Shown piece after piece: positions 1,314 to 46,588 of a DNA stretch of 55,521 bases; positions within the stretch are counted from its first letter, which is position 1, and each line of letters opens with the position of its first letter. The position numbers and the translations under genes are program-made. Below the pieces are notes generated by a model that saw only the letters and a program-made list of their open reading frames with translations, was not told where the DNA came from and made no database searches. Origin of the DNA: Candidatus Thorarchaeota archaeon (GTDB lineage Archaea; Asgardarchaeota; Thorarchaeia; Thorarchaeales; Thorarchaeaceae); contig JBHLRS010000020.1 in the NCBI GenBank assembly GCA_048882325.1, positions 1 to 55,521 on the forward strand, written 5' to 3'.

Positions 1314-2648
1314 ATGAATAAACAACGTCGAATAATTGCGATCATTGTAGCTGCACTTATTCTATCTATCTTTTTTACACCCATTCTAGTTCGGAGTTCA
1401 ATGAATTTTGACCACACTGTCTGGTCAGTAGCATTTGGAGGGGCAAATTACGATGAGGGTTCATCAATCATACCTTGTGATAACGGGGGTTACATTATGT
1501 CTGGCAGAACCCAAGGGTTTGAGGTGTTATCACATGATGATGAGGTTTGGCTTGTGCATTGTAATCAGGATGGAAACCACATGTGGAATAGGACATATGG
1601 TGGCGGGATGAAATATGGAGGATATATGAGTACACATCATCATTCTGTGACAGTTATCAAAGCTGAGAATGAGGGGTACCTTCTTACAAGTCACACGACC
1701 AATTTTGGCCCTGGAGATGTCAACGGCTGGTTGATACATACCGATAAGAATGGGGTTCATCTCTGGAACCATACTTATGGGGGAGCATCGGACGAGATCC
1801 TGATCAAGTCAGCAAGAAGTAGTGATGGAGGATATGTTTCAGTGGGATTCTCTGAAAACATCACAGCTGGTATAATTGATGGGTGGATAATACGTACAGA
1901 TGCGAATGGACAACATATCTGGAACCATACCTGTGGTGGTGTGGATATCGGAGAATTCTTCACTGATGTCATCGAAGTACACCAGGGTGGTTTCCTAATA
2001 GCAGGACTTCTTGGTGGTTTTAGTTATTTTGAGGATCGGAGTGGTGCACCTCCCGATGTCTGGTTGTATCGTATTGATGCAGATGGGAATCATCTGTGGA
2101 ATCGAACCTATGGTGGTTCTGATGTGGATGGACCAAACCAGGTAATCCAATGCACAAACGAAGACTTTGCAATCTTTGGTGGGACCGCTAGCTTTGGTGC
2201 AGGGAATCTTGATGCATGGCTTGTAAGAGTGGATGATGAAGGAAATCATCTGTGGAATCGGACCTATGGCGGAGATAACATAGAAACAGGGTTTGGTGTA
2301 GCTGAATGCCAAGACGGAGGGTTTGCTTTATTCACACTCTCCTATACTGATGCAATCGGTACATCCGACGCATGGATCATACGAACTGATTCGAGTGGTA
2401 CTCCAATTTGGGATCAGAAATATGCGGGCGATGACTTCGACCAGTTTTGGGGTGGTATATGCATCGATGATGCATTTGTTGCTGTTGGTGTCACTGAAAG
2501 TTTCGGGTCGGGTCATGTCGACATGTGGGTTACGAAAATACCGGATAGAGCTCCATCGACACCTATTGATATAATACAAGTCATAATGATAGGAACTATA
2601 GTAACAGGAGTTCTTTTGGTTGTAGTTATACTCATCAGAAGGAAATGA
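1314..2648 (+). CDS. secreted/membrane-anchored beta-propeller repeat protein
   Basis: N-terminal signal, repeated W-L-x-R-x-D-x-x-G-N-H-L-W-N-R-T-Y-G-G units, C-terminal TM + basic tail. Confidence 0.85.
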   Translation: MNKQRRIIAIIVAALILSIFFTPILVRSSMNFDHTVWSVAFGGANYDEGSSIIPCDNGGYIMSGRTQGFEVLSHDDEVWLVHCNQDGNHMWNRTYGGGMKYGGYMSTHHHSVTVIKAENEGYLLTSHTTNFGPGDVNGWLIHTDKNGVHLWNHTYGGASDEILIKSARSSDGGYVSVGFSENITAGIIDGWIIRTDANGQHIWNHTCGGVDIGEFFTDVIEVHQGGFLIAGLLGGFSYFEDRSGAPPDVWLYRIDADGNHLWNRTYGGSDVDGPNQVIQCTNEDFAIFGGTASFGAGNLDAWLVRVDDEGNHLWNRTYGGDNIETGFGVAECQDGGFALFTLSYTDAIGTSDAWIIRTDSSGTPIWDQKYAGDDFDQFWGGICIDDAFVAVGVTESFGSGHVDMWVTKIPDRAPSTPIDIIQVIMIGTIVTGVLLVVVILIRRK

Positions 2649-2654
2649 GAAGAA

Positions 2655-2688
2655 GTGGTCACGAGTTCAAATCTCGTCCGGCCCACCA
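2655..2688 (+). repeat. copy of tRNA-Val 3' end (variable loop to CCA)
   Basis: 32/34 identity to positions 40-73; the two differences are a compensatory T-stem pair. Confidence 0.92.
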
Positions 2689-2756
2689 CTTCTTTTCACC
2701 AATGTAAATGGAAAAAGACAGAGAAGATGAGTGCTTTCACACTCACCTTACCCAGA

Positions 2757-3998
2757 TTACGATTTTTTACGCGCGAAATTTACTACTCCCAGTAAGATTA
2801 CTACGCCTACACCTATTCCAATGTAGAGAAGATTGTCTAGGATAATATCGATAAGTCCACCATTTGTTGTTGGCATAGTTGGTGTTGTAGTAGAGGTATA
2901 AGCATCTAATCCTTGACGTGTGATGTTGATTGTACCAATGACCTCAGAGGTCGTGATGTTCGTGAAGACAGCAGTGTGATGAGCTAGAAAACCATCAGTC
3001 TTGAGGTAATCTGTGTGTATCTGGTGACGTATATCCCCACTTATACTATCTCGAGAGTAACCCCAGAACCAAGGATTTGTGCCATCAGGGGTAGCATTCA
3101 CAGCTGTATCCATCCCTTCTACGAGGTCATCAAGTAGAGACCAATTCCCAATGGGAACTGCAAGCCTCCAAGAATGCGAGAAGAATGGATCATACGATTC
3201 AGTACCATTTGCCCAGTAAAGATTTGCACCGATGTACAGGATGTCATCAAAGTCTACCATTAGATATGGAAGGATAGGAAGACCATCCTCGTCTACCTCA
3301 ATGTACATTTCTTCCTCGAGGTCTGTGAAACCTAAATCATCACCCGTGAGGTTTACAACAAAGTCGAACCTGTCACCATCATTGAAGCCCCAACGAAGGG
3401 TGTGATAAGCGAACCTGTTGAACTCCCAGAGTGAGATCGTTTCATCAGTTGTCGTGTTCTTATTCTCAATGTTATAGCTATACAACACTCCATCAAACTT
3501 GGAATAGTCAACTGAAACAGTGGTTTCAGTGTCAGCTGAGTTGTTGGTCTTGTATGAGAAGCCCCACAAATTATCATCATATTGCACGGTTATATCTCGA
3601 GCCTCGACAAATAATAGGCCTTCAAGATCAGTCGCTGCAAGAGTAGTTAGTAAATCCCAGTTTCCAACTGGATACGCAAGATAGAGTATAAACAGGAATG
3701 TGAGAGCCATCAGACCTATGCTTGTGTCATTCTCGAAATTGATTACAACATCCAAGTACGAGAGATCTCCAAGATAAGTGACAGGGTCAGGTATCGGAAT
3801 ATTGGCATCTACAATCTCAATATAGATGACCTCAGTCGGTAAAACATCTCCTTCATCTGTGAGATCTAGAGTGAAGTGGAAACGATTACCATTCTCAGGT
3901 CTATAGAAGAATCCTTGACTTGTAAAAGCTGTTGTCTGTGGGATGATTATCATGGTTGTGAATAATGCGACTAGAGCAAGTGTAGCGCTTTTTTTCAA
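2757..3998 (-). CDS. secreted protein with internal domain duplication and C-terminal TM anchor
   Basis: Signal peptide, two similar halves (G.RF.F...PxGNW.LL...WG.S...DY.K.DG), Thr-rich linker, TM + RKKS. Confidence 0.8.
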   Translation of the reverse strand: MKKSATLALVALFTTMIIIPQTTAFTSQGFFYRPENGNRFHFTLDLTDEGDVLPTEVIYIEIVDANIPIPDPVTYLGDLSYLDVVINFENDTSIGLMALTFLFILYLAYPVGNWDLLTTLAATDLEGLLFVEARDITVQYDDNLWGFSYKTNNSADTETTVSVDYSKFDGVLYSYNIENKNTTTDETISLWEFNRFAYHTLRWGFNDGDRFDFVVNLTGDDLGFTDLEEEMYIEVDEDGLPILPYLMVDFDDILYIGANLYWANGTESYDPFFSHSWRLAVPIGNWSLLDDLVEGMDTAVNATPDGTNPWFWGYSRDSISGDIRHQIHTDYLKTDGFLAHHTAVFTNITTSEVIGTINITRQGLDAYTSTTTPTMPTTNGGLIDIILDNLLYIGIGVGVVILLGVVNFARKKS

Positions 3999-4106
3999 AC
4001 ATCCACCTCCGATTGATAATCATCACAGTGTCAAGAGTCTATAAACTATCTAGATAATTCCATCAAGCAGATAGTTTCTTGTAGCTATCTATGTGGCCAA
4101 TAGGAG

Positions 4107-4595
4107 TCATTCAAACCTATCGAGCTCTTCAGTCATCTCTCGTAGAGGAAGACTGTCCTCTCGGTTCGGACACCCCTCACACTCAACGTACTTCCCGCAA
4201 TTGAGTTGGAGGATGCCCTGATCCACCAAGAACTTGGGAAACTCTTGGTAAACCGATGTGTCAATCTCATCCTCGATTCCGCAGGAATACGAGTCATAGA
4301 GATCTGCAAAAAGGCCAATTATCTCAGTCAAAACCCTCGTGTGTACCTCAGCGTCCTCATCATCATCTGCAGAGATGGAGAATATCAGGTCCTCCTTTGG
4401 CATCAACATGAAACGTAGCCCACTGAGTGTTATCTCGTTAAGAGTGTCTGCCGAAATGGCACTGCCAAAATTACTCAGGGAGCTGATGAAACTGCTGATT
4501 TCCTCGGTGTTGTCACACATAGAATGGCACTCACCAAAGTTCGAACAGAGTAGCGCGCGACCATTCTTGTCAAGAATGAGAAGGTTTCGGATCAT
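4107..4595 (-). CDS. longin-like domain protein with C-terminal Cys cluster
   Basis: MIRNLLILDKNGRALL N-terminus and FISSLSNF/LIFSISAD pattern typical of longin folds; C-x5-C-x2-C tail. Confidence 0.65.
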   Translation of the reverse strand: MIRNLLILDKNGRALLCSNFGECHSMCDNTEEISSFISSLSNFGSAISADTLNEITLSGLRFMLMPKEDLIFSISADDDEDAEVHTRVLTEIIGLFADLYDSYSCGIEDEIDTSVYQEFPKFLVDQGILQLNCGKYVECEGCPNREDSLPLREMTEELDRFE

Positions 4596-4651
4596 GTGGT
4601 TCAGCTGTAATGAGTGTGTAGAATGCTAATGATATCTGTTTTTGGTGCATT

Positions 4652-5173
4652 CTAGAAGTACATTCCTGCACGTTCGGGGAACCGCTTTCTGAAAGTCTTC
4701 TCTGCTGACCGATCCAGAGAGATCTGCCTCTTCAAAATCTCAGGACTCAACGAACCCAAGTTCGGTCTCATGAGCACTGGACCCCGGAGAATGGGGGAAG
4801 GTGTATCTGCAGAGATATCGTCAATAGACTGCGGTACCCGTTTCAAGATGTCATCAAGACTGAGTTTTGGACCCTTTTCTCCAGTTAGTGAGTTCAACAT
4901 CCCCTGTAGATCTGACTCGCTGAGGGGACGAAGACCAAACTCAGGTGACGACCGGATAGAATCAACGGCATCACATGACTCAGGCAACTCGACTCCTGCA
5001 CCAGTGAACTGGTAGGGATTGAGTGGAATGAGCTTCAGCTGGAAGGCGGAATCGGAACTGAGAACCAGCATTTCCCCAAGAGGAGTGCTCATGATATGCC
5101 ACCCCCTAGGACGCTCTGAGTACTGCTTGAGAATGCGGGGAACAATTTTGTCAGCTGGTTCTGGTTTGGTCAC
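4652..5173 (-). CDS. hypothetical protein
   Basis: 173-aa ORF co-oriented with neighbours. Confidence 0.7.
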   Translation of the reverse strand: MTKPEPADKIVPRILKQYSERPRGWHIMSTPLGEMLVLSSDSAFQLKLIPLNPYQFTGAGVELPESCDAVDSIRSSPEFGLRPLSESDLQGMLNSLTGEKGPKLSLDDILKRVPQSIDDISADTPSPILRGPVLMRPNLGSLSPEILKRQISLDRSAEKTFRKRFPERAGMYF

Positions 5174-5244
5174 TTTTGTTCATTACTATACCAGCACATA
5201 CACAAAAAGCACTATCGGTAGTTGCGAGATGGTCTCAGGTGTCC

Positions 5245-5595
5245 TTAGGGCCATGTGGCCAATAGTTCTCCAAGCGGGTGGGACTTCTCTACAGACCCTT
5301 GCACAACATTACCTGAAGCTTCCAGGTCTTCAAGTATCTCTGTAGCAATCCTGTCAATGTCCCTAACATCATCAAGCACAAATCTGAAAGTGATTGGCAG
5401 ACCTTTCCTTTCCACTCCAACCGCGGTCAGAGTGAGTCTTCTAAGCCTCTTTTGATCATCCATAAATGGTCCTTGATAGAACTCAGGGCTGTAGACGACC
5501 ACTGCAGCCTCAGTAGCGACCTCCTTGAAGTCTGAGAGTCTGTTGAGCTGCACAGGGGGAATGAATACATTCTGTTCGGCGTTCACATTTTCCAT
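5245..5595 (-). CDS. hypothetical protein
   Basis: 116-aa ORF with ATG start, downstream of AT-rich promoter region. Confidence 0.7.
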   Translation of the reverse strand: MENVNAEQNVFIPPVQLNRLSDFKEVATEAAVVVYSPEFYQGPFMDDQKRLRRLTLTAVGVERKGLPITFRFVLDDVRDIDRIATEILEDLEASGNVVQGSVEKSHPLGELLATWP

Positions 5596-5754
5596 CTCGC
5601 TGTTTTTGAAGACCCTGTATCCCCTTCATTTCCGATGGAGAATTTCAGCATCTTCCCTGTTTTGCGGCCTCCCGGCCACTCTGTATGTATATCATTAATT
5701 ATATATAAATATTTCTAATTATCTATTTTTTTAATTATTTGTCTAAATAAATCA

Positions 5755-5772
5755 TTAGAACACGTGTTCTAA
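5755..5772. promoter_or_regulatory. perfect 18-bp palindrome, candidate transcription-factor site
   Basis: TTAGAACAC|GTGTTCTAA in an intergenic region near a TATA-like TTATATATAAA (~5699-5709). Confidence 0.5.
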
Positions 5773-5814
5773 GGTTTTCTAGACATGTGTGTTGCAGAAA
5801 ATGAGAGATGAGAT

Positions 5815-6294
5815 TCAGAAAGTGATGCAGACCCTTCGGATTCGCCCAATCTGTTGAGATTTGATGAAAGCCAAGTACTCAAAGACCCGGCGTATCAACT
5901 CAGATTTGGCACGAGAGCTGATTGATTTGTAGAACGTATATCCTGAGAACTCCTTCTCAAGAGCTTTGTTGCAGACATACAACCGTGGGTCAGTGTCGAT
6001 GTTGGACTCCGAGAATGGGGTCCGGTCCATCCCAAAGGGAGTTGGATCAGGGTCGTCATAGGAGAAGTCTTCCTTTGCCACCTCTTCCACAACATCAAGG
6101 ATTCCTGTGGTCATCATTAACCGAATCCTCTCGATGAGCTCACCTTCTGTTTCAGCCAGAACCATGAGCAAGGCTTTGACCTGCGGTGTTTCAGCTGCGT
6201 TGGCTGCCTTAAGATAGAAATCGTACTGGTTAGCGGTGGTAGTCAAGGCAAGTCTCAGTAGGTGTTGATGGGAGGTAGCATCGCTCATTACCAT
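5815..6294 (-). CDS. ferritin-like (rubrerythrin-like) four-helix protein, paralog 1
   Basis: FY..AA....P.VKALL..LAE.E and ALE.E..GY.FY pattern; start moved to ATG 6294. Confidence 0.75.
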   Translation of the reverse strand: MVMSDATSHQHLLRLALTTTANQYDFYLKAANAAETPQVKALLMVLAETEGELIERIRLMMTTGILDVVEEVAKEDFSYDDPDPTPFGMDRTPFSESNIDTDPRLYVCNKALEKEFSGYTFYKSISSRAKSELIRRVFEYLAFIKSQQIGRIRRVCITF

Positions 6295-6356
6295 GAAATT
6301 ACACAACAAATGAAGAAAGCACTTTCTATTCTGTACTAGATTTTGGCCCATTGGCG

Positions 6357-6809
6357 CTAAAATGTGATGCAGACCTTCCTGATCTGTTCAATCTGTTGTG
6401 CTTTGACAAAGGCCAGATATTCAAAGAGCCGGCTCGCAAGCTCGGTCTTTGCACGTGCGGCGATAGACAGGTAGAAGGTGTAGCCCTTGATCTCCTGCTC
6501 AAGTGCTTTGTTGCAGACAAAGATTCTTGGATCTGTATCCATTCTCTCAGGTGAGATTGGTGTATCATCGGGGGGGTCATCTGCCGCAGCGACTCGTTTC
6601 ATGACTTCAATCTCATCAAGAATTCCAGTGACTATCATATGATTGATATGAGCGATCAGGTCCCTTTCAGTTTCAGCCAATACATTGAGAAGAGCCTTTA
6701 CTTGGGGAGTTTCGACCTGTTCTGCGGTCTTCATATAATACTCAAAGTGACGGGTAGACATCGCCATTGCCATGTTCAGTAATGGATCTAAGGGATTCTT
6801 GCGACTCAT
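6357..6809 (-). CDS. ferritin-like (rubrerythrin-like) four-helix protein, paralog 2
   Basis: Clear paralog of the adjacent gene (ETPQVKALL, DTDPR, CNKALE, CITF); start at ATG 6809. Confidence 0.75.
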   Translation of the reverse strand: MSRKNPLDPLLNMAMAMSTRHFEYYMKTAEQVETPQVKALLNVLAETERDLIAHINHMIVTGILDEIEVMKRVAAADDPPDDTPISPERMDTDPRIFVCNKALEQEIKGYTFYLSIAARAKTELASRLFEYLAFVKAQQIEQIRKVCITF

Positions 6810-6859
6810 AGGAGTGCAGGAAATATGCAACCGCTTAGAAATGAGTTTCTATGGCGCAC

Positions 6860-7573
6860 TCAAAGTTTCTTGAAACTCGCTGGGTCGGCAAGGTAGCCAG
6901 AAATCATACTGAACTCTTCACTGGACATCCTGTCCTTTATCAGGGGAAGCCCCTCTTCTACAAGGTCTATGAGGGAGTGGAGTCTGATTTCAAGTTCGTC
7001 CGCGCGCTTACGGGCACCTTGCTGTCGGTCAATGACCACAGCAATATCATCAACAGTGTAGTTGCTTATTCCGCGCTTCTCAAGTTCAGCAATGACCTGA
7101 TCCCGAGCGACGAGTTTGCTCTCCATGCCAGTCACAAGATCGTCTACAAGGCAGATAGCATCACCCTCTTTCACTTCACCCTCAAGTAGGGAATGTTGTC
7201 CATACCTCGCAATCGCCTCCCTGAGGTCTTGTTCAGTTCGTACGCCGACTATCTTCCTCGTGTGACCAGCAGGAATTCCAGTTGAGAGTGACGTTGCTGT
7301 AGCGATAGGGATGCCTGCAAAAGCTATACCCACAAGCCTGTTGATGTGTGGTGCCTCCTCCTTGATGAGCTCACCCAGTGCATTTCCTACCTTCTCAAGA
7401 GTTTCTGGAAAGGAGGAGAGGATGCGCAGTTGGATGTAGAATGGGCTCGACAGACCTGAGTGTAAGGTCCACCCATCTGGCTTGTCACGAACAGATGTCA
7501 GTAACATCCTGTTCTCATAGATGTCCTGCATGATGCGCTTCTTCAGGCTTGCATCCACCATCCTATGCACCAA
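6860..7573 (-). CDS. pyrE: orotate phosphoribosyltransferase
   Basis: LHSGLSSPFYIQLR, GIAFAGIP and PRPP-binding LVDDLVTG motifs. Confidence 0.85.
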   Translation of the reverse strand: MVHRMVDASLKKRIMQDIYENRMLLTSVRDKPDGWTLHSGLSSPFYIQLRILSSFPETLEKVGNALGELIKEEAPHINRLVGIAFAGIPIATATSLSTGIPAGHTRKIVGVRTEQDLREAIARYGQHSLLEGEVKEGDAICLVDDLVTGMESKLVARDQVIAELEKRGISNYTVDDIAVVIDRQQGARKRADELEIRLHSLIDLVEEGLPLIKDRMSSEEFSMISGYLADPASFKKL

Positions 7574-7653
7574 GTTGGTAGAGGCATGTGGAAGTTCTTA
7601 ACTCTGCCCCCATTGCAGAGATTACTTATAGAGAGGGCGCTGATTATTGAACC

Positions 7654-8721
7654 ATGAACCAGAGGGACCTAGCCTATTGGCTTCTCGACAATGCAGGCCC
7701 TGTCATCAGGTTCAGGACCTTAGTGGACATCTTTCACGAACAAGATGTTGGTACCGTATCAAGGGCTCTAGAAGAGATGTCTACGAGTCCGGTAGTCATG
7801 AAGTGGTTGAATCTCATTGAGCACAGTCTAGCGTTCAACGATATACACTCAGGCAGACAGAATGCATTTGAGAATGTCATAGCTAAGTTGGTTCAGCTCG
7901 GGTGGCGCGCAGGACTACAACCCTTTGATAACAAGACTCTGTTCTTTAGAGTATGGCTGTCAGAGAACATTGAGAAAGAACCGATTAAACCTCATGAGGT
8001 ATTCAAGCGGACACTGATTGCATCTGTACTGGCGCGTGCTGGATATCAGACGGTTGATGCAGTTCAAAAACAAGTGCTCTCACGCCTGAAAACTGTACAT
8101 CAGTTTGCTAAAGATCCAGACTTCTCAAACATCTTTGTTGACAAATCAGAGTACAAGGGAATCCCAAAGGGCCTTGATAGTCACGATTTGGTCAATCCGG
8201 AACTATATCAACACCAGCAATTTACACTCCCATGGATCCACGATATCTATGCATTCAGTCATCTCGATGTCGTACTGAAGGTTGACCATAATCGCAACCA
8301 AGCTGAGGAAGTCCTCGAAACCATTCTCACTCCCGAATATCAAGAGCTTCCATGGAGTTACGGTATAGCTAAGTATGGAAAACGATACTATGTTCTGGGA
8401 TGGGCAGCCCACCTTCCTGGATACTTCAAGCCTCCCAAGGGCAGACTGTTTGCTGAGATGTTGCTTGTTCTTGAAGCATTAGCACCCTTCAGCTGTGTAA
8501 GGGGAAGCATATGGTTCAAGGACTCGATGAAATACTTGGAAGAATTCAGAACTGCGGAGGGTATCTACTCGTTTCCGAGGACATGGTTACCAGAGAAACA
8601 AAAAGGCTATTGGATAGGTGGGGAGTACATGGGTTTTGATGAGAGAAAAGGTAGAAAGAATGCTATTGAGGTTGAATCAACCTTCCGAGTTCTCAGTATC
8701 AGTAAACGAGCGGGTCTTTGA
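7654..8721 (+). CDS. hypothetical protein
   Basis: 355-aa ORF with ATG start and upstream TATA-like element. Confidence 0.8.
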   Translation: MNQRDLAYWLLDNAGPVIRFRTLVDIFHEQDVGTVSRALEEMSTSPVVMKWLNLIEHSLAFNDIHSGRQNAFENVIAKLVQLGWRAGLQPFDNKTLFFRVWLSENIEKEPIKPHEVFKRTLIASVLARAGYQTVDAVQKQVLSRLKTVHQFAKDPDFSNIFVDKSEYKGIPKGLDSHDLVNPELYQHQQFTLPWIHDIYAFSHLDVVLKVDHNRNQAEEVLETILTPEYQELPWSYGIAKYGKRYYVLGWAAHLPGYFKPPKGRLFAEMLLVLEALAPFSCVRGSIWFKDSMKYLEEFRTAEGIYSFPRTWLPEKQKGYWIGGEYMGFDERKGRKNAIEVESTFRVLSISKRAGL

Positions 8722-9789
8722 GTGGCTTTTGCCTGTGAATATTAAGGAGAGAATTCTACTTCTAGGGACAAGCATAGCAAAAGGGATTGATAATCCCAAT
8801 CCTAGCAAAAGTCGCAATGGCCAGAAGATAATCCATGCTGCATCATAAGCGGTCAAAGACCATCCAAAGATCATCATCAGAACTGGTGCAAGATAGAAAA
8901 AGACAGGATGGATCTCATAAATCACCTGCGAACTCTTTCCAAGAAACTGCATATCTCTACTAAGTAACGATGACTTGGACGAGCTTGACAGCATGAAGAT
9001 GAATATCGTTCCAGCTGTCGCATTGACGAGGAATAGCCATTCATTCGTACCAAACCAATCGTCAGCGAAACTTATGAATCCATTATACTGACTAGCCATC
9101 AGCATGAAGACAAGAAGAACAGCAAGAATTGCTCCATCTAGGACATTCGTTCCAGTTCGCCATGGTTTCAGACCTCTGAGCCGGGTCATCTCATGACCAA
9201 TGATGCAGAATGTTGTTGCAATCAGTATACTGTTTACTCGCCAGGGGACAAGTAATGGAGCAAAGGAGTTTGTTATCCAGAATGCTACTAGTGGGAGAAG
9301 TAAAACAAGCGGCCATCGCACTCTCGGGTCATATGAGTGTGTCACAGACTCAATTACTATGAACAACAATAGTCCGAAGTAGAGAACTGGGAGGAACCAT
9401 AGGTAGCTTGGCTGACCCGGTGGTCCAGAACCGTAGAGAAGCCAGAAAATTAACTCTGGAGGTGTCAGATAGGTGTCAACCGACCCAGTAAGAGGGATGA
9501 ACAGCAGGGTCATGATGATGTAGATTGAGAAGTATGGAATCAGCAGCTGACGGCCCCTCGAGGTAGCATAGTTCTTGAGGTTCTGTCGATGCTTGTCCCC
9601 ATTGTAAGTCATCCCCGCCAAGATGAAGAAAAGGACTATGGCAAAGCTAGCAAGAAATGAAACAGCTGACTCGAGGAACCAATCACCTCGCATCGGTATC
9701 ATGGAATGACACCAGACCACAGCGATTATTCCAGCCCCTTTTGCGATGTCAATCCACTCTAGCCTGTTGCTAGTGACTAGTTCTGACAG
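8677..9789 (-). CDS. acyltransferase family 3 (OafA-like) membrane protein
   Basis: RLEWIDIAKG (upstream of listed GTG), FFILAG, LLIPY, LWFLPVL motifs; start uncertain (CTG 9789 or GTG 9720). Confidence 0.85.
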   Translation of the reverse strand: MSELVTSNRLEWIDIAKGAGIIAVVWCHSMIPMRGDWFLESAVSFLASFAIVLFFILAGMTYNGDKHRQNLKNYATSRGRQLLIPYFSIYIIMTLLFIPLTGSVDTYLTPPELIFWLLYGSGPPGQPSYLWFLPVLYFGLLLFIVIESVTHSYDPRVRWPLVLLLPLVAFWITNSFAPLLVPWRVNSILIATTFCIIGHEMTRLRGLKPWRTGTNVLDGAILAVLLVFMLMASQYNGFISFADDWFGTNEWLFLVNATAGTIFIFMLSSSSKSSLLSRDMQFLGKSSQVIYEIHPVFFYLAPVLMMIFGWSLTAYDAAWIIFWPLRLLLGLGLSIPFAMLVPRSRILSLIFTGKSHSKTRSFTDTENSEG

Positions 9790-39961: not shown

Positions 39962-40037
39962 GCCTCGGTGGCTTAGTGGTTATAGCGTCAGCTTCGTAAG
40001 CTGGTGGTCGCGGGTTCGAGTCCCGCCCGGGGCTCCA
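39962..40037 (+). tRNA. tRNA-Thr(CGT)
   Basis: GCCTCGG/CCGGGGC-T-CCA, TCAGC-TTCGTAA-GCTGG, GCGGG-TTCGAGT-CCCGC. Confidence 0.95.
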
Positions 40038-40603
40038 ATTTTCATTTTCCGCTTTCGAAACAATACAAGTGGTATGAATGCGAAGACGATAACGAAGGCA
40101 ACTCCCAGGAGAATCCACTTCAGAGATGTAATGATACTAGCAACGATAATCACTGGTTCAGAGAGATTAGGGTAGGAGCCAATTTGTGTTAACACTAGAG
40201 TGTTCTCAACATAGTCCATGATTCCTCCAAACAAGGGAAAAAGTACCAAGAACTTGGCCTTCGGACTGTCAGGATATGAATTTCTGATTTCCATATTGAT
40301 ACCAAATGCTAGTGCGAACATGTATGTAAGTGGAAACAGAAAATCAAGCATATGTGCTTGCGCCCAGACATTCAAACCTTCCTGACCCAGCGTGTTAAAC
40401 ACATCCGTGATTTCGTCAATCGAATATGAAAAACGCGTGTCAGGCATTGTAACATCAGCATAGACATCATAGACCCAGGTTTGGGTCAACATAGCCATGA
40501 CCATCACAACAGCAAAACTCGAGATTATCATAAGAATGAGATTACGAGGAGAGGTCATTTTCTCAATTGATCTAAGTACTCGCACTAATATGACCCCAAT
40601 CAA
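39980..40603 (-). CDS. four-TM membrane protein whose 3' end overlaps tRNA-Thr antisense
   Basis: PDTRFSY, LDFLFPL, DYVEN, KW pattern; no stop before tRNA. Confidence 0.8.
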   Translation of the reverse strand: MIGVILVRVLRSIEKMTSPRNLILMIISSFAVVMVMAMLTQTWVYDVYADVTMPDTRFSYSIDEITDVFNTLGQEGLNVWAQAHMLDFLFPLTYMFALAFGINMEIRNSYPDSPKAKFLVLFPLFGGIMDYVENTLVLTQIGSYPNLSEPVIIVASIITSLKWILLGVAFVIVFAFIPLVLFRKRKMKIGAPGGTRTRDHQLTKLTL

Positions 40604-40678
40604 GCTCTTTCGTGAGTCCTATTTGGAAGTTTCCAACTGTCCTAATGACTCGAGTCCCGCCCGGGGCTCCAATTTTCA
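40016..40678. mobile_element. single-gene cassette/micro-island at tRNA-Thr
   Basis: Perfect 29-bp direct repeats 40016-40044 and 40650-40678 enclosing one gene. Confidence 0.7.
40650..40678 (+). repeat. copy of tRNA-Thr 3' end plus trailer
   Basis: TCGAGTCCCGCCCGGGGCTCCAATTTTCA identical to 40016-40044. Confidence 0.95.
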
Positions 40679-43204: not shown

Positions 43205-43384
43205 CTATAAGGGACCGCAACAACGCAAGACTTGTGCAATTAGAGGGAAGCACTTCCGGCGTCAAGTTGTTATCAACAGAAATCCTTATCATTCATACAT
43301 CACCGAAAAACGATGAACTCCACAGTACAATACTCCGGAAGCGTCTTCCTGGAATACGGAGTATTGGCCCTTGTCCTTACACAT

Positions 43385-43532
43385 GCGGAGGTTGCCAAGC
43401 CAGGTTAAAGGCGCTAGGTTGAGGGCCTAGACTTTGTGGCGTCTTGTCACGAAGAGGCTATCTCGTAGGAGTTCGCGAGTTCAATCGATTTGGGATTTCT
43501 CCTAGTCGGAATAAATCTCGCCCTCCGCACCA
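43385..43532 (+). tRNA. tRNA-Leu(GAG) with two non-canonical introns (43431-43460 at ~43/44; 43485-43514 in T-loop ~58/59)
   Basis: GCGGAGG/CCTCCGC-A-CCA acceptor, CTAGG-TTGAGGG-CCTAG anticodon arm; both inserts fold as bulge-helix-bulge-like motifs and removal restores variable arm and GCGAG-TTCAAAT-CTCGC. Confidence 0.9.
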
Positions 43533-44137
43533 TTTTCTTTCTGAATTTGTGAATTGAAATGCCATATTGATAGAAGAGTGAGAGGGATTCCACATAATAT
43601 CGCAATAACAGGAATTCCTGATTCACCCAAGAAACCAACAAGAAAAAGAGAAGCAAACGTCATGATAATGGCAATTGGTTCAACGACCCTTTCATGGGTT
43701 GTCCATTCTACTGGGGGCCCAAGTATTATGGCTACTGCAATGTATAGTAACAATGTGAAGAATAACACAGTTTCAATCACAATGATCAAACGCAATTGAG
43801 GAAGCAATGTTAGACCATAAGCTCCCAATAGAATAAGGAGTGAACCAAACACGAACTCTGTTAGAGCAACAACCTTTGGCGTGACTTTGATTCGGGATTC
43901 TTTCATTTCATCAGACATGCTCTTGTTATTTTGTTTGGTATCATAGCCATTTGTCTGTCTGTACATCCAAATGATGAGGATGTTGCATATAACAAAGGTG
44001 ACTAAACTATCCAGTAAACTATCCCAAAAAGACCTGCTAACTAGATACTTATATTCAAAGTATAGAAACACACCAACAACAAGGATTAGGTATCCCTCAA
44101 GAAAGCGCTTTTGTTCTTCTTTCATTTTCGCGACCAT
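43502..44137 (-). CDS. membrane protein, cassette paralog 1 (ends GAEGEIYSD inside tRNA-Leu)
   Basis: Six hydrophobic segments; shares ALTEF...PVEW motif with the next two genes. Confidence 0.75.
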   Translation of the reverse strand: MVAKMKEEQKRFLEGYLILVVGVFLYFEYKYLVSRSFWDSLLDSLVTFVICNILIIWMYRQTNGYDTKQNNKSMSDEMKESRIKVTPKVVALTEFVFGSLLILLGAYGLTLLPQLRLIIVIETVLFFTLLLYIAVAIILGPPVEWTTHERVVEPIAIIMTFASLFLVGFLGESGIPVIAILCGIPLTLLSIWHFNSQIQKENGAEGEIYSD

Positions 44138-44195
44138 TCTAAAACGAAACTATGTATCATACGACCGTGTAGAATCTTATCAATGAATTTGAGAG

Positions 44196-44217
44196 TCAAA
44201 TCTCGCCCTCCGCACCA
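44196..44217 (+). repeat. tRNA-Leu 3'-end copy 1
   Basis: TCAAATCTCGCCCTCCGCACCA, identical to the spliced tRNA 3' 22 nt. Confidence 0.95.
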
Positions 44218-44621
44218 TATTCTTCTTTGGTAGTTGTAGTCTTCCTGATTCGGGCATTTGGATGAAGAGTGGCAATTAGAATCAAGATTAATCCCACAAG
44301 CATTACGAGAATTCCCAGTTCGAAACTTGTCGAGTTAAAACCAATCCAAATGCCTGAAAGCAACAGAGTAGAGCCAATTCCATTCAATCTCTTTGCATTT
44401 GCGGACCATTCAGGAGTTTCACTTGTTATTGCATTATAACCAAAGAATATCAAGAAAGCAAAAAACAAGCCAAATACAAGCATAGTAAGATCCTTTAGCT
44501 CGCTAGTTCTAATGTTGATTGCTAATACCATGAGAAGTAGTAATATACCTATAAACAATTCAGCAAGAGCCACTAATTCTGTCGATAGTTCCTTATCAGA
44601 CTCCTGATTGTTACGTTTCAA
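44196..44621 (-). CDS. four-TM membrane protein, cassette paralog 2 (ends GAEGEI*)
   Basis: ALAELFIG...TPEWS; GGAGG RBS upstream of TTG. Confidence 0.75.
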   Translation of the reverse strand: MKRNNQESDKELSTELVALAELFIGILLLLMVLAINIRTSELKDLTMLVFGLFFAFLIFFGYNAITSETPEWSANAKRLNGIGSTLLLSGIWIGFNSTSFELGILVMLVGLILILIATLHPNARIRKTTTTKEEYGAEGEI

Positions 44622-44671: not shown

Positions 44672-44694
44672 TTCAAATCTCGCCCTCCGCACCA
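44672..44694 (+). repeat. tRNA-Leu 3'-end copy 2
   Basis: TTCAAATCTCGCCCTCCGCACCA, identical to the spliced tRNA 3' 23 nt. Confidence 0.95.
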
Positions 44695-45137
44695 TCCTCT
44701 TCTTTGTAAGGCAAGAAATCTAGGCGTGGCTTAGATCTATTGATGTGTGGAGTTGAATACTTCATACGCCAGCAGGATGATAGAATAAGAAGAGTCCCAA
44801 ATACCACATATAGAATAGCCACTCCAGTTTCGGTCAATATATCAACAAGAAATAGAAACAACGAGGACAACAAAAGAAGGGATACAACGCAATCAATCCG
44901 GTCACTTGTTGTATCGTTGGACCACGTGACTGGAGTACCCAGAACCCACAACTTTGCTAAATAGAGTATCAATAGAAAAACCACAGCGATTCCGATTAAA
45001 ATAAAAATATAGAGTGCCAACAACTGGAAAAATCCGTAAAATCCCACCAGGAGACTAAGTAATCCAAAACCGAACTCAGTCAAAGCAAAAACATTGTGCC
45101 TGTAATCAAAACTTGAGTGGTTCTCTGAGTCGTCCAT
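44673..45137 (-). CDS. four-TM membrane protein, cassette paralog 3 (ends GAEGEI*)
   Basis: ALTEFGFG...TPVTWS; GAGGAG RBS upstream of ATG. Confidence 0.75.
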   Translation of the reverse strand: MDDSENHSSFDYRHNVFALTEFGFGLLSLLVGFYGFFQLLALYIFILIGIAVVFLLILYLAKLWVLGTPVTWSNDTTSDRIDCVVSLLLLSSLFLFLVDILTETGVAILYVVFGTLLILSSCWRMKYSTPHINRSKPRLDFLPYKEEDGAEGEI

Positions 45138-45208: not shown

Positions 45209-45222
45209 GAGTTCAAATCTCG
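45209..45222 (+). repeat. tRNA-Leu 3'-end copy 3 (T-arm only, truncated)
   Basis: GAGTTCAAATCTCG, 14/14 to spliced T-arm, in the intergenic gap. Confidence 0.65.
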
Positions 45223-45237: not shown

Positions 45238-45594
45238 CTATTCAGTTTCGTATCTTGATGGCTCAGCGAAGAAATCCATAGCTCTGAAGAAAGTCTTGAA
45301 CTCAGCAGAGTGAACGACTCCTTCAGGGATATAGTATGAGTCTCCTCTCTTGTAGAGTTTTGTCGCATCTCCAATTGTCAACAACATCTCTCCCTCAATT
45401 ACAAAGCCATACTGTGCACTATGACTATGAGGAGGGAGACTTCCTATGGGTTCAATCTCAAAGAACGCAACTTGAAAACCGACACCTTGAGCTATCCATG
45501 CTTGGACCCCTTCCAATGGAAGCTTTGCCTTTGGCAGTTCTCTGATACAATCCGGATATGGTTCAACGGTCATGATTCTCAGCATCCTTTTCAT
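45238..45594 (-). CDS. cupin domain protein
   Basis: PPHSH...Q.G.VIEG, GDSYYIPEGVVHS. Confidence 0.9.
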   Translation of the reverse strand: MKRMLRIMTVEPYPDCIRELPKAKLPLEGVQAWIAQGVGFQVAFFEIEPIGSLPPHSHSAQYGFVIEGEMLLTIGDATKLYKRGDSYYIPEGVVHSAEFKTFFRAMDFFAEPSRYETE

Positions 45595-46046
45595 TCAAGT
45601 TCAATTCGCTCCATCTTGAATTTCCTCATTCGTTCATCAATTCCTGAACCGAAAGGTGCCATAAATCTCTGGATTGAAGTAAATAGTTCTTCAGGGACTT
45701 CTAAGGCTGCTTCAATGCACTGAGCAAGATCATTCTTTGAAAGGTATTGAGTCAAGGGGCAATGGACCAAATAATGGTCTTCCCCATCTGTTGAGAAAAT
45801 GGGATATTTCCTGCAAAGCAACGGGCGTACAGGATAGATTTCGCAGAGAGATTCTTTGAGATAGGGGCAAATAAGGTCCTCTCCGAAATCTGTAACATAG
45901 CAGTTCTCCGTGATTTCAATGAACTTGTCCGGATACCCAACCTCAATAACTCGGTCTACTTCCGACTTTGTGGCAACAGATCCCCCTAGCGTACAACAGT
46001 ATCCACCGCATTCTTTGCAGATACTCAAGTGCTTGTCATTTGTCAT
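45591..46046 (-). CDS. YkgJ family cysteine-cluster protein
   Basis: CKECGGYCC, CPYL...CEIYPVRPLLCRKYP. Confidence 0.9.
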   Translation of the reverse strand: MTNDKHLSICKECGGYCCTLGGSVATKSEVDRVIEVGYPDKFIEITENCYVTDFGEDLICPYLKESLCEIYPVRPLLCRKYPIFSTDGEDHYLVHCPLTQYLSKNDLAQCIEAALEVPEELFTSIQRFMAPFGSGIDERMRKFKMERIELE

Positions 46047-46075: not shown

Positions 46076-46097
46076 TCAAATCTCACCCTCGGCATCA
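46076..46097 (+). repeat. tRNA-Leu 3'-end copy 4 (degenerate)
   Basis: TCAAATCTCACCCTCGGCATCA, 19/22 to spliced tRNA end, followed by pyrimidine tract. Confidence 0.8.
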
Positions 46098-46111: not shown

Positions 46112-46588
46112 TTACACTAGAACCTTCTCAAGCCAGACATGATATCCCCAAGGATTCTTGTTTTTCTCGAAGATTGAATACCCGTGCTTTTTGTAAAAGC
46201 TCACAGCCCACTCTGCGTCGCTGTCTGTTTCTAAGCGAACCTTCGTGAAATTGAGGTGCTTCGCCTTCTTTTCAAGAAAACTCAGCAGCGCAGAACCAAT
46301 CCCTTGCCTTTGGTACTTTGAATGAACGTGCATTAGTGGAATCCATGCTGTATCCTCGTTTCTAGTTCCAAAAGATCCCACAGCAACAATCCTGCCCCGC
46401 TTCTTGTGGATATAGAACTCCATGACCTTTGCCATCTCATCAAATTGTTTTCGAGTCAAGAAAGGGTCAAGAAAATGTTCTTCCGGGATGATTTTGCTGT
46501 ACCATTCGCGATTGATTGTATTGATGAGTGTGAGAATCTCTTCCAAATCAGCTGGTTCAGCAGGTGTGAACTTGATTGATTGTGTCAT
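46112..46588 (-). CDS. GNAT family N-acetyltransferase
   Basis: VHSKYQRQGIGSALL, AVSFYKKHGY. Confidence 0.92.
   Translation of the reverse strand: MTQSIKFTPAEPADLEEILTLINTINREWYSKIIPEEHFLDPFLTRKQFDEMAKVMEFYIHKKRGRIVAVGSFGTRNEDTAWIPLMHVHSKYQRQGIGSALLSFLEKKAKHLNFTKVRLETDSDAEWAVSFYKKHGYSIFEKNKNPWGYHVWLEKVLV

Follow-up and report, generated by a model that had tools for sequence, protein, structure and literature searches.

Archaeal tRNA introns of the non-canonical BHB type have been described as transposing in the Thermoproteales (Fujishima 2010, as summarized in the review PMC4090602), and intron-rich tRNA genes have been reported in Asgard archaea (Valentin-Alvarado 2024, PMC11291895; Goswami et al., bioRxiv 10.64898/2026.10.13.758758). 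For its three focal Asgard families, the latter preprint describes almost no intron families common to different tRNA types and no connection with mobile elements; it leaves the general route of intron arrival open, and "Thor" is absent from its main text. In Caldiarchaeum, a model of intron gain through a mobile element has been proposed for tRNA-Thr(GGU), with the att arm as the vector (Sugahara 2012, PMC3293823). The idea that tRNA introns shield the gene from integration dates from 2008 (Randau and Soll 2008, as cited in PMC3293823 and PMC4090602), and Sugahara 2012 noted that there was no direct evidence for it (PMC3293823). Among integrating elements, additive flexible genomic islands consist of stacked cassettes marked by tRNA-end repeats (PMC4898812), and archaeal att sites can be limited to the acceptor end, as in SNJ2 (PMC8371274).

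Here we analyzed a window of 55,521 nucleotides, contig C20 of a Thorarchaeota genome of 3.6 Mb that is 93% complete (G000), in comparison with 86 genomes of the family and 28 of the genus (G001 etc.), with relatedness gauged by rpoB identity and the rpoB tree; L287, L288 and L292 denote metagenome contigs carrying tRNA-Leu(TAG). The window contains a tRNA-Leu(GAG) gene with a T-loop intron followed by an array of displaced tRNA 3' ends and small gene cassettes. The parts of this locus, T-loop BHB introns and tRNA-end repeats, are of known kinds. As in the Thermoproteales, the introns have BHB boundaries and a T-arm position, there are several per gene, and related introns occur across tRNA types; unlike in the Thermoproteales, the host is an Asgard archaeon, the introns are uniform 30-nt hairpins that overlap an active cassette site, and gains and losses are visible between sisters at 96% rpoB identity. 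The introns resemble those of both Asgard studies in being non-canonical, missed by standard annotators and repeatedly and recently gained, whereas the cross-type intron family and the intron-bearing cassette ends set the Thorarchaeota apart from the three families of the preprint. The likeness to the Caldiarchaeum gene lies in tRNA fragments beside intron-bearing genes and in the att arm as a possible intron vector; here, by contrast, there are 3'-end arrays of one-gene cassettes, without a recombinase gene in the insert, in many genomes. The array shares with additive islands and other tRNA-targeted elements the stacking at the tRNA 3' end, one tRNA-end direct repeat per cassette and the sharing of cassettes across species, but its units comprise only one or two genes (0.25-1.4 kb), their 5' edge is variable, and no integrase was found in the array or the genome. 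As the shield hypothesis supposes, the intron lies inside the duplicated tRNA segment, but the comparative data contradict a full block. Two published questions, whether tRNA introns protect against integration and how they arrive, thus become testable on natural alleles: among sister genomes of the genus, all combinations of intron and cassette occur at the same site, a natural test set of which the first answer is against a full shield.

The tRNA-Leu(GAG) gene and its introns

The tRNA-Leu(GAG) gene (43385-43532, plus strand) encodes the CCA and is interrupted by two non-canonical introns of 30 nt each; it was called by neither ARAGORN nor Rfam. With both introns removed, it yields an 88-nt tRNA-Leu(GAG), a single nucleotide away from the genes of two relatives that naturally lack introns (G016 and G020). 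The T-loop intron (intron 2; 43485-43514, plus strand) is located at position 58/59, where the gene reads ...GAGTTCAA, then the 30 nt, then ATCTCG..., and orthologs both with and without an intron at this site were found. By inspection, the intron boundaries form a BHB motif with a 4-bp helix between two 3-nt bulges: exon nucleotides G53-C56 pair with GAAT of the intron, the bulges are at A57-A58 and at the intron end, and the intron contains a 10-bp hairpin. The exon-side helix has only 2 bp, and MFE folds contain the intron hairpin and lack the BHB register; the assignment is based on inspection together with the conservation, across the 58/59 intron family, of GAAY opposite G53-C56. The T-loop intron claimed in the original prediction is thereby borne out, with the position, the BHB motif and a standard tRNA after removal all in agreement, and by its boundaries and family the insert is a true tRNA intron of the EndA type, for which splicing by EndA is predicted from the sequence. 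Another 30-nt intron, which the original prediction did not mention (intron 1; 43431-43460, plus strand), lies at position 43/44 between the anticodon stem and the variable arm; it too has a BHB and a hairpin and is present in some orthologs and absent from others. A 43/44 intron of 64 nt in G007 (L006, contig C261) resembles an intron nested in an intron.

About ten tRNA types in this Thorarchaeota family have 30-nt hairpin introns at position 58/59 (related ones in Leu GAG/CAG/TAG/CAA, Pro, Ala, Thr, Ser, Ile, Val and Trp). The T-loop intron of the window shares 14-24 of 30 positions with 37 other 58/59 introns; the corresponding values are 10-14 against 43/44 introns and 10.8 against shuffles, such that introns in different tRNA types are related above both backgrounds. 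The distribution of this intron is patchy, both on the rpoB tree and across the tRNA types of sister genomes. At Leu(GAG), it is present in the genome of the window in one clade and in G024 and G007 in another, and missing in their sister G015; among these three sisters, the 58/59 intron occupies different tRNA types. Even sister species differ by gains and losses of the intron, the intron family has passed from one tRNA type and lineage to another within this Thorarchaeota family, and the tree suggests that Leu(GAG) acquired it late in the lineage of the window. The genome of the window has a related 58/59 intron in tRNA-Pro(CGG) (L123; G000, contig C25, 30420-31200), which is identical to that of the window in 20 of 30 positions and to the Ala(TGC) intron of G018/G019 in 28 of 30; a perfect intron-less repeat with G57 lies 720 bp downstream of this gene. 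At tRNA-Ile(GAT), G015 (L298; no intron) and G009 (L299; intron) share 475 bp from A58 onward at 94% identity, above the 88% identity of their rpoB genes.

The array of tRNA ends and cassettes

Downstream of tRNA-Leu(GAG), the sequence TCAAATCTC recurs at 44196, 44673, 45213 and 46076. It has seven matches in the window against 1.25 expected, and none of 100 shuffles reached seven; as had been predicted, all four downstream copies lack the intron across the junction. The repeats are on the plus strand and the cassette genes on the minus strand; they are described here in order from the tRNA gene. The proximal cassette (cassette 1) contains an ORF for a 211-aa membrane protein (43502-44137), with 30-36% amino acid identity to cassettes 2 and 3, which runs through the tRNA end and stops inside intron 2; the predicted extension by YSD holds (GAEGEIYSD* with the intron, GAEGEI* without it). 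The same cassette is found at about 95% identity in a relative from run X8, on a contig that starts at window position 43513. Repeat 1 (44192-44218) is intron-less and consists of GAG, a 1-nt gap, TCAA and then a perfect 3' end. It is followed by cassette 2 (ORF 44196-44621, 141 aa), which is also the first cassette of the intron-less Leu(CAG) in G013, at 85% nucleotide identity, above the 82% identity of rpoB. Repeat 2 (44672-44695), intron-less and perfect, precedes cassette 3 (ORF 44673-45137, 154 aa), and in a relative from run X8 this repeat is joined to the cupin gene without cassette 3. Repeat 3 (45209-45222) retains only the T-arm, without the acceptor strand; beyond it are genes for a cupin and a YkgJ-like CxxCxxCC protein (45238-46046), the latter a recurrent cassette in many genus members. 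Repeat 4 (46076-46097) is decayed, with 3 mismatches in the last 18 nt, and is followed by a GNAT gene (46112-46588) that is the proximal cassette at the intron-less Leu(GAG) in G004 (78% nucleotide identity). The inserts are flanked by direct repeats of the tRNA 3' end with the gene restored, and cassettes travel between species and between tRNA types, Leu isoacceptors included.

The repeats of the window start at T55 or T54, except for copy 1, which starts at G51 with a 1-nt deletion, and copy 3, which also starts at G51. The repeats had been predicted to begin exactly at the intron; instead, they start 4-8 nt upstream of it and span the junction. Among 88 displaced Leu ends of relatives, picked irrespective of the upstream bases, positions 55-58 match in 78-85, position 54 in 49 and position 53 in 30. 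A start at T55 is therefore general, intron-less relatives included, with a sharp edge at T55, rarer starts at T54 and a tail out to 33 nt. Selection for stop codons was considered as the cause of the TCAA edge and rejected because 55 of the 65 repeats into which no ORF extends still have TCRA. Repeats of the tRNA end are present 3' of Leu(GAG) in most genomes of the genus, whatever introns the gene carries; the array is a genus trait and not a consequence of the intron.

Similar arrangements were observed elsewhere. The window begins with a tRNA-Val(GAC) gene (1-73), of which two displaced copies, at 445 and 2667, differ from the T-stem of the gene by a compensatory pair. A perfect 29-nt copy of tRNA-Thr(CGT) sequence (window 39962-40678), located 634 bp downstream, bounds a single membrane-protein gene. 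Contig C33 of the same genome contains an array of five or six longer repeats that resemble the 23S rRNA end (2500-9100), so that arrays are not confined to tRNA ends. Many contigs of this genome end at tRNA genes (C6, C13, C20, C23, C58 and C75), as expected if the adjoining cassettes vary in the population. Upstream of Leu(GAG), about 115 bp (43270-43384) are kept in six relatives, with different genes further upstream; this segment includes a 10-bp inverted repeat, has a fold z of -0.7 and has no match in Rfam. A literature search for tRNA-anchored gene arrays gave no match.

Cassette turnover beside the intron

The published proposal of a shield (Randau and Soll, via PMC4090602), on which the original prediction of an inactivated att site drew, translates here into an intron that came after the cassettes, blocked an integrase cutting in the T-loop and froze the site or, in a weaker form, merely slowed the T-loop route. 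The geometry fits, given that the T-loop is interrupted by the intron 4 nt inward from the most frequent repeat start and that none of the four window repeats has the intron. Moreover, Leu(CAG) genes with an older intron in four genomes (G001, G006, G012 and G017) have no perfect repeats, which is also what a partial block would give.

The comparison of relatives points the other way. The Leu(TAG) alleles of L288 and L287/L292 both carry the intron (28 of 30 positions alike) and have flanks that are 90% identical on both sides; L288 has in addition a single GNAT cassette of 535 bp followed by a perfect repeat without the intron, and the flank after this repeat corresponds to the flank directly 3' of the CCA in L287. 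Thus, the filled and the empty alleles of one cassette site are both seen, with the intron in each. Whether a cassette was gained or lost, the simplest history calls for a crossover in the 20 bp 3' of the resident intron; lateral transfer of the 5' part together with its intron could mimic intron retention in this pair, and a search of GTDB contigs for an outgroup to the L287 flank found none. The sisters G024 and G007 (96% rpoB identity) have an identical intron at Leu(GAG) and different proximal cassettes; those of G007, the contig of which ends inside the array, were not found in the 99%-complete G024. At Ile(GAT), the same sisters share an intron and differ by about 1.3 kb beside the CCA, a difference that has no bounding repeat and that we count as weak.

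Displaced ends that carry the intron also exist. Contig C86 of G015 has a complete intron-bearing Val gene and, 3.8 kb downstream, an intron-bearing copy with mismatched T-stem halves. On contig C64 of G002, two intron-bearing displaced Leu ends, one with a decayed hairpin, surround one gene; no 5' half for these fragments was found in this 85%-complete assembly. Other displaced ends carry tails of 53/54 or 43/44 introns (a looser search pattern for such tails was discarded, its matches being mostly chance). In a small sample, arrays are neither shorter nor more decayed at intron loci: the number of repeats per Leu(GAG) locus is 2.3 at the three loci with the 58/59 intron, the only ones found, against 1.8 at 16 loci that lack a T-arm intron (P=0.49, with kin that are not independent), and the first repeat is perfect at all three intron-bearing loci. 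In any case, the downstream repeats would stay intron-less targets.

Relatives with the intron thus differ in their proximal cassettes, in substance the very observation that had been named as speaking against inactivation. Since cassettes change beside the intron in relatives, the intron here does not appear to be the often-proposed shield; these comparisons of sequences argue against a full block, with cassettes apparently still coming and going. In its strong form the shield is contradicted, a slowing of the T-loop route is possible, and on the whole we consider a protective role unlikely.

Source of the repeats and arrival of the intron

The explanation that we favor, at a probability of about 0.7, is that the repeats are DNA copies of intron-less alleles, that small cassettes of one or two genes dock at the tRNA 3' end, and that the intron leaves this site open. 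Each cassette would carry a copy of the tRNA end and be added by a single crossover, leaving the displaced end behind, probably through a small circular intermediate. The repeats would look spliced either as copies of the gene from before the intron or as copies of donor arms. A crossover within the 18-20 bp 3' of the intron would keep the intron in the gene and make the repeat intron-less; in the window, the 18-19 bp 3' of intron 2 (43515-43533, plus strand) are identical to repeats 1 and 2 and offer the homology remaining for exchange in the presence of the intron. A crossover 5' of the intron would displace it with the old end. Both products, with the intron kept and with the intron displaced, exist in relatives.

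The sharp T54/T55 edge suggests that a recombinase provided in trans cuts in the T-loop, and the longer and chimeric ends suggest that host homologous recombination may contribute as well. No tyrosine recombinase (PF00589 or PF16795) was detected in the 93%-complete G000, and a BLAST search with the integrases of relatives found none there either. Phage_integrase matches are present in 8 of the 28 genomes of the genus (20 are without one), with no tRNA end near these integrases. The array works like an integron array without being one: an integron was considered and rejected, given that no tyrosine recombinase was found and that the repeats are tRNA ends, not attC-like by inspection.

Donors without the intron, which the original prediction also envisaged, are supported by the place of cassette 2 in G013, and intron-less alleles are the majority in the genus. 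Two other origins of the intron-less repeats have to be weighed against this explanation. Derivation from the intron-less Leu(TAG) or Leu(CAG) loci of the same genome would fit with their identical last 18 nt, the lack of a T-loop intron and the movement of cassettes between Leu isoacceptors; however, both genes have G57 and all four window repeats have A57, so that these loci are not the direct source, and we regard this origin as very unlikely. Reverse transcription of the mature spliced tRNA would explain why the repeats match the spliced sequence and include the CCA, but the gene itself encodes the CCA, a search of the genome with RVT_1 gave no reverse transcriptase, and the preprint reported no signature of reverse transcription in Asgard intron gains (10.64898/2026.10.13.758758). 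Because intron-less alleles are widespread at the DNA level and some displaced ends retain introns or their tails, an origin from mature tRNA is very unlikely.

It is also conceivable, if doubtful, that the intron came with cassette 1, on the cassette's own copy of the tRNA end. A crossover 5' of position 58 would then have placed the intron-bearing arm in the gene, and the previous, intron-less end would have become repeat 1. This history is compatible with our preferred explanation, the one difference being the way in which the intron was acquired. A model of this kind was put forward by Sugahara et al. 2012 (PMC3293823; PMC8371274), and it agrees with the existence of intron-bearing displaced ends, with the extension of repeat 1 back to G51, with the G57 of the displaced repeat in L288 where the gene has A57 and the intron, and with the crossing of cassettes between tRNA types. 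Introns at Ala(TGC) and Thr(CGT), however, change without a change of cassette, the proximal cassettes of intron loci are unrelated or only distantly related, and no close relative was found to have cassette 1 and lack the intron. At Ala(TGC), G024 with the intron and its sister G007 without it both have the same proximal cassette of 796 bp, so that introns can arrive or leave after a cassette; at Thr(CGT), sisters likewise share the proximal cassette and differ in the intron. An intron later than the cassettes, as originally suggested, is accordingly plausible in the window and seen at Ala(TGC). For its order relative to cassette 1 in the window, three histories are conceivable, with the intron after cassette 1, with it, or before it, the cassette having been added by a 3' crossover.

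If the intron came with cassette 1, later loss of the cassette through a crossover 3' of the intron would keep the intron in the gene, such that cassette traffic would spread introns. As a tentative generalization, which we would not rate above a speculative possibility, the integrase-less one-gene cassettes of Thorarchaeota may carry tRNA introns on their arms, with entry by a 5' crossover and exit by a 3' crossover turning intron-less genes into intron-bearing ones and spreading introns between tRNA types and species. Intron-bearing tRNA ends are found among the displaced copies. If intron-carrying arms are real, they would provide a DNA-level route of intron arrival, and the intron would be a passenger of the very traffic that it was thought to block.

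Fragments of the 5' part of tRNA-Leu genes were observed as well. A 5' Leu fragment ending at A58 was looked for and not found, and tRNA-Leu(GAG) 5' fragments ending exactly at G53 are present at three loci (L220, G014 contig C19; L221, G059 contig C116; L222, G051 contig C307). In G014 and G059, the 5' fragment is followed by a full gene with a 53/54 intron. The 1.9 kb between fragment and gene in G059 contain two HTH-rich ORFs, one of which encodes a protein of 397 aa with two Cys/His repeats that is nuclease-like in appearance, its top Pfam matches being to HTH only. Additional 5' tRNA-Leu fragments, and tRNA ends in inverted arrangement, are found with intervening cargo genes at L103 (G003 contig C187), L223 (G011 contig C186), L224 (G014 contig C174) and L212 (G015 contig C124).
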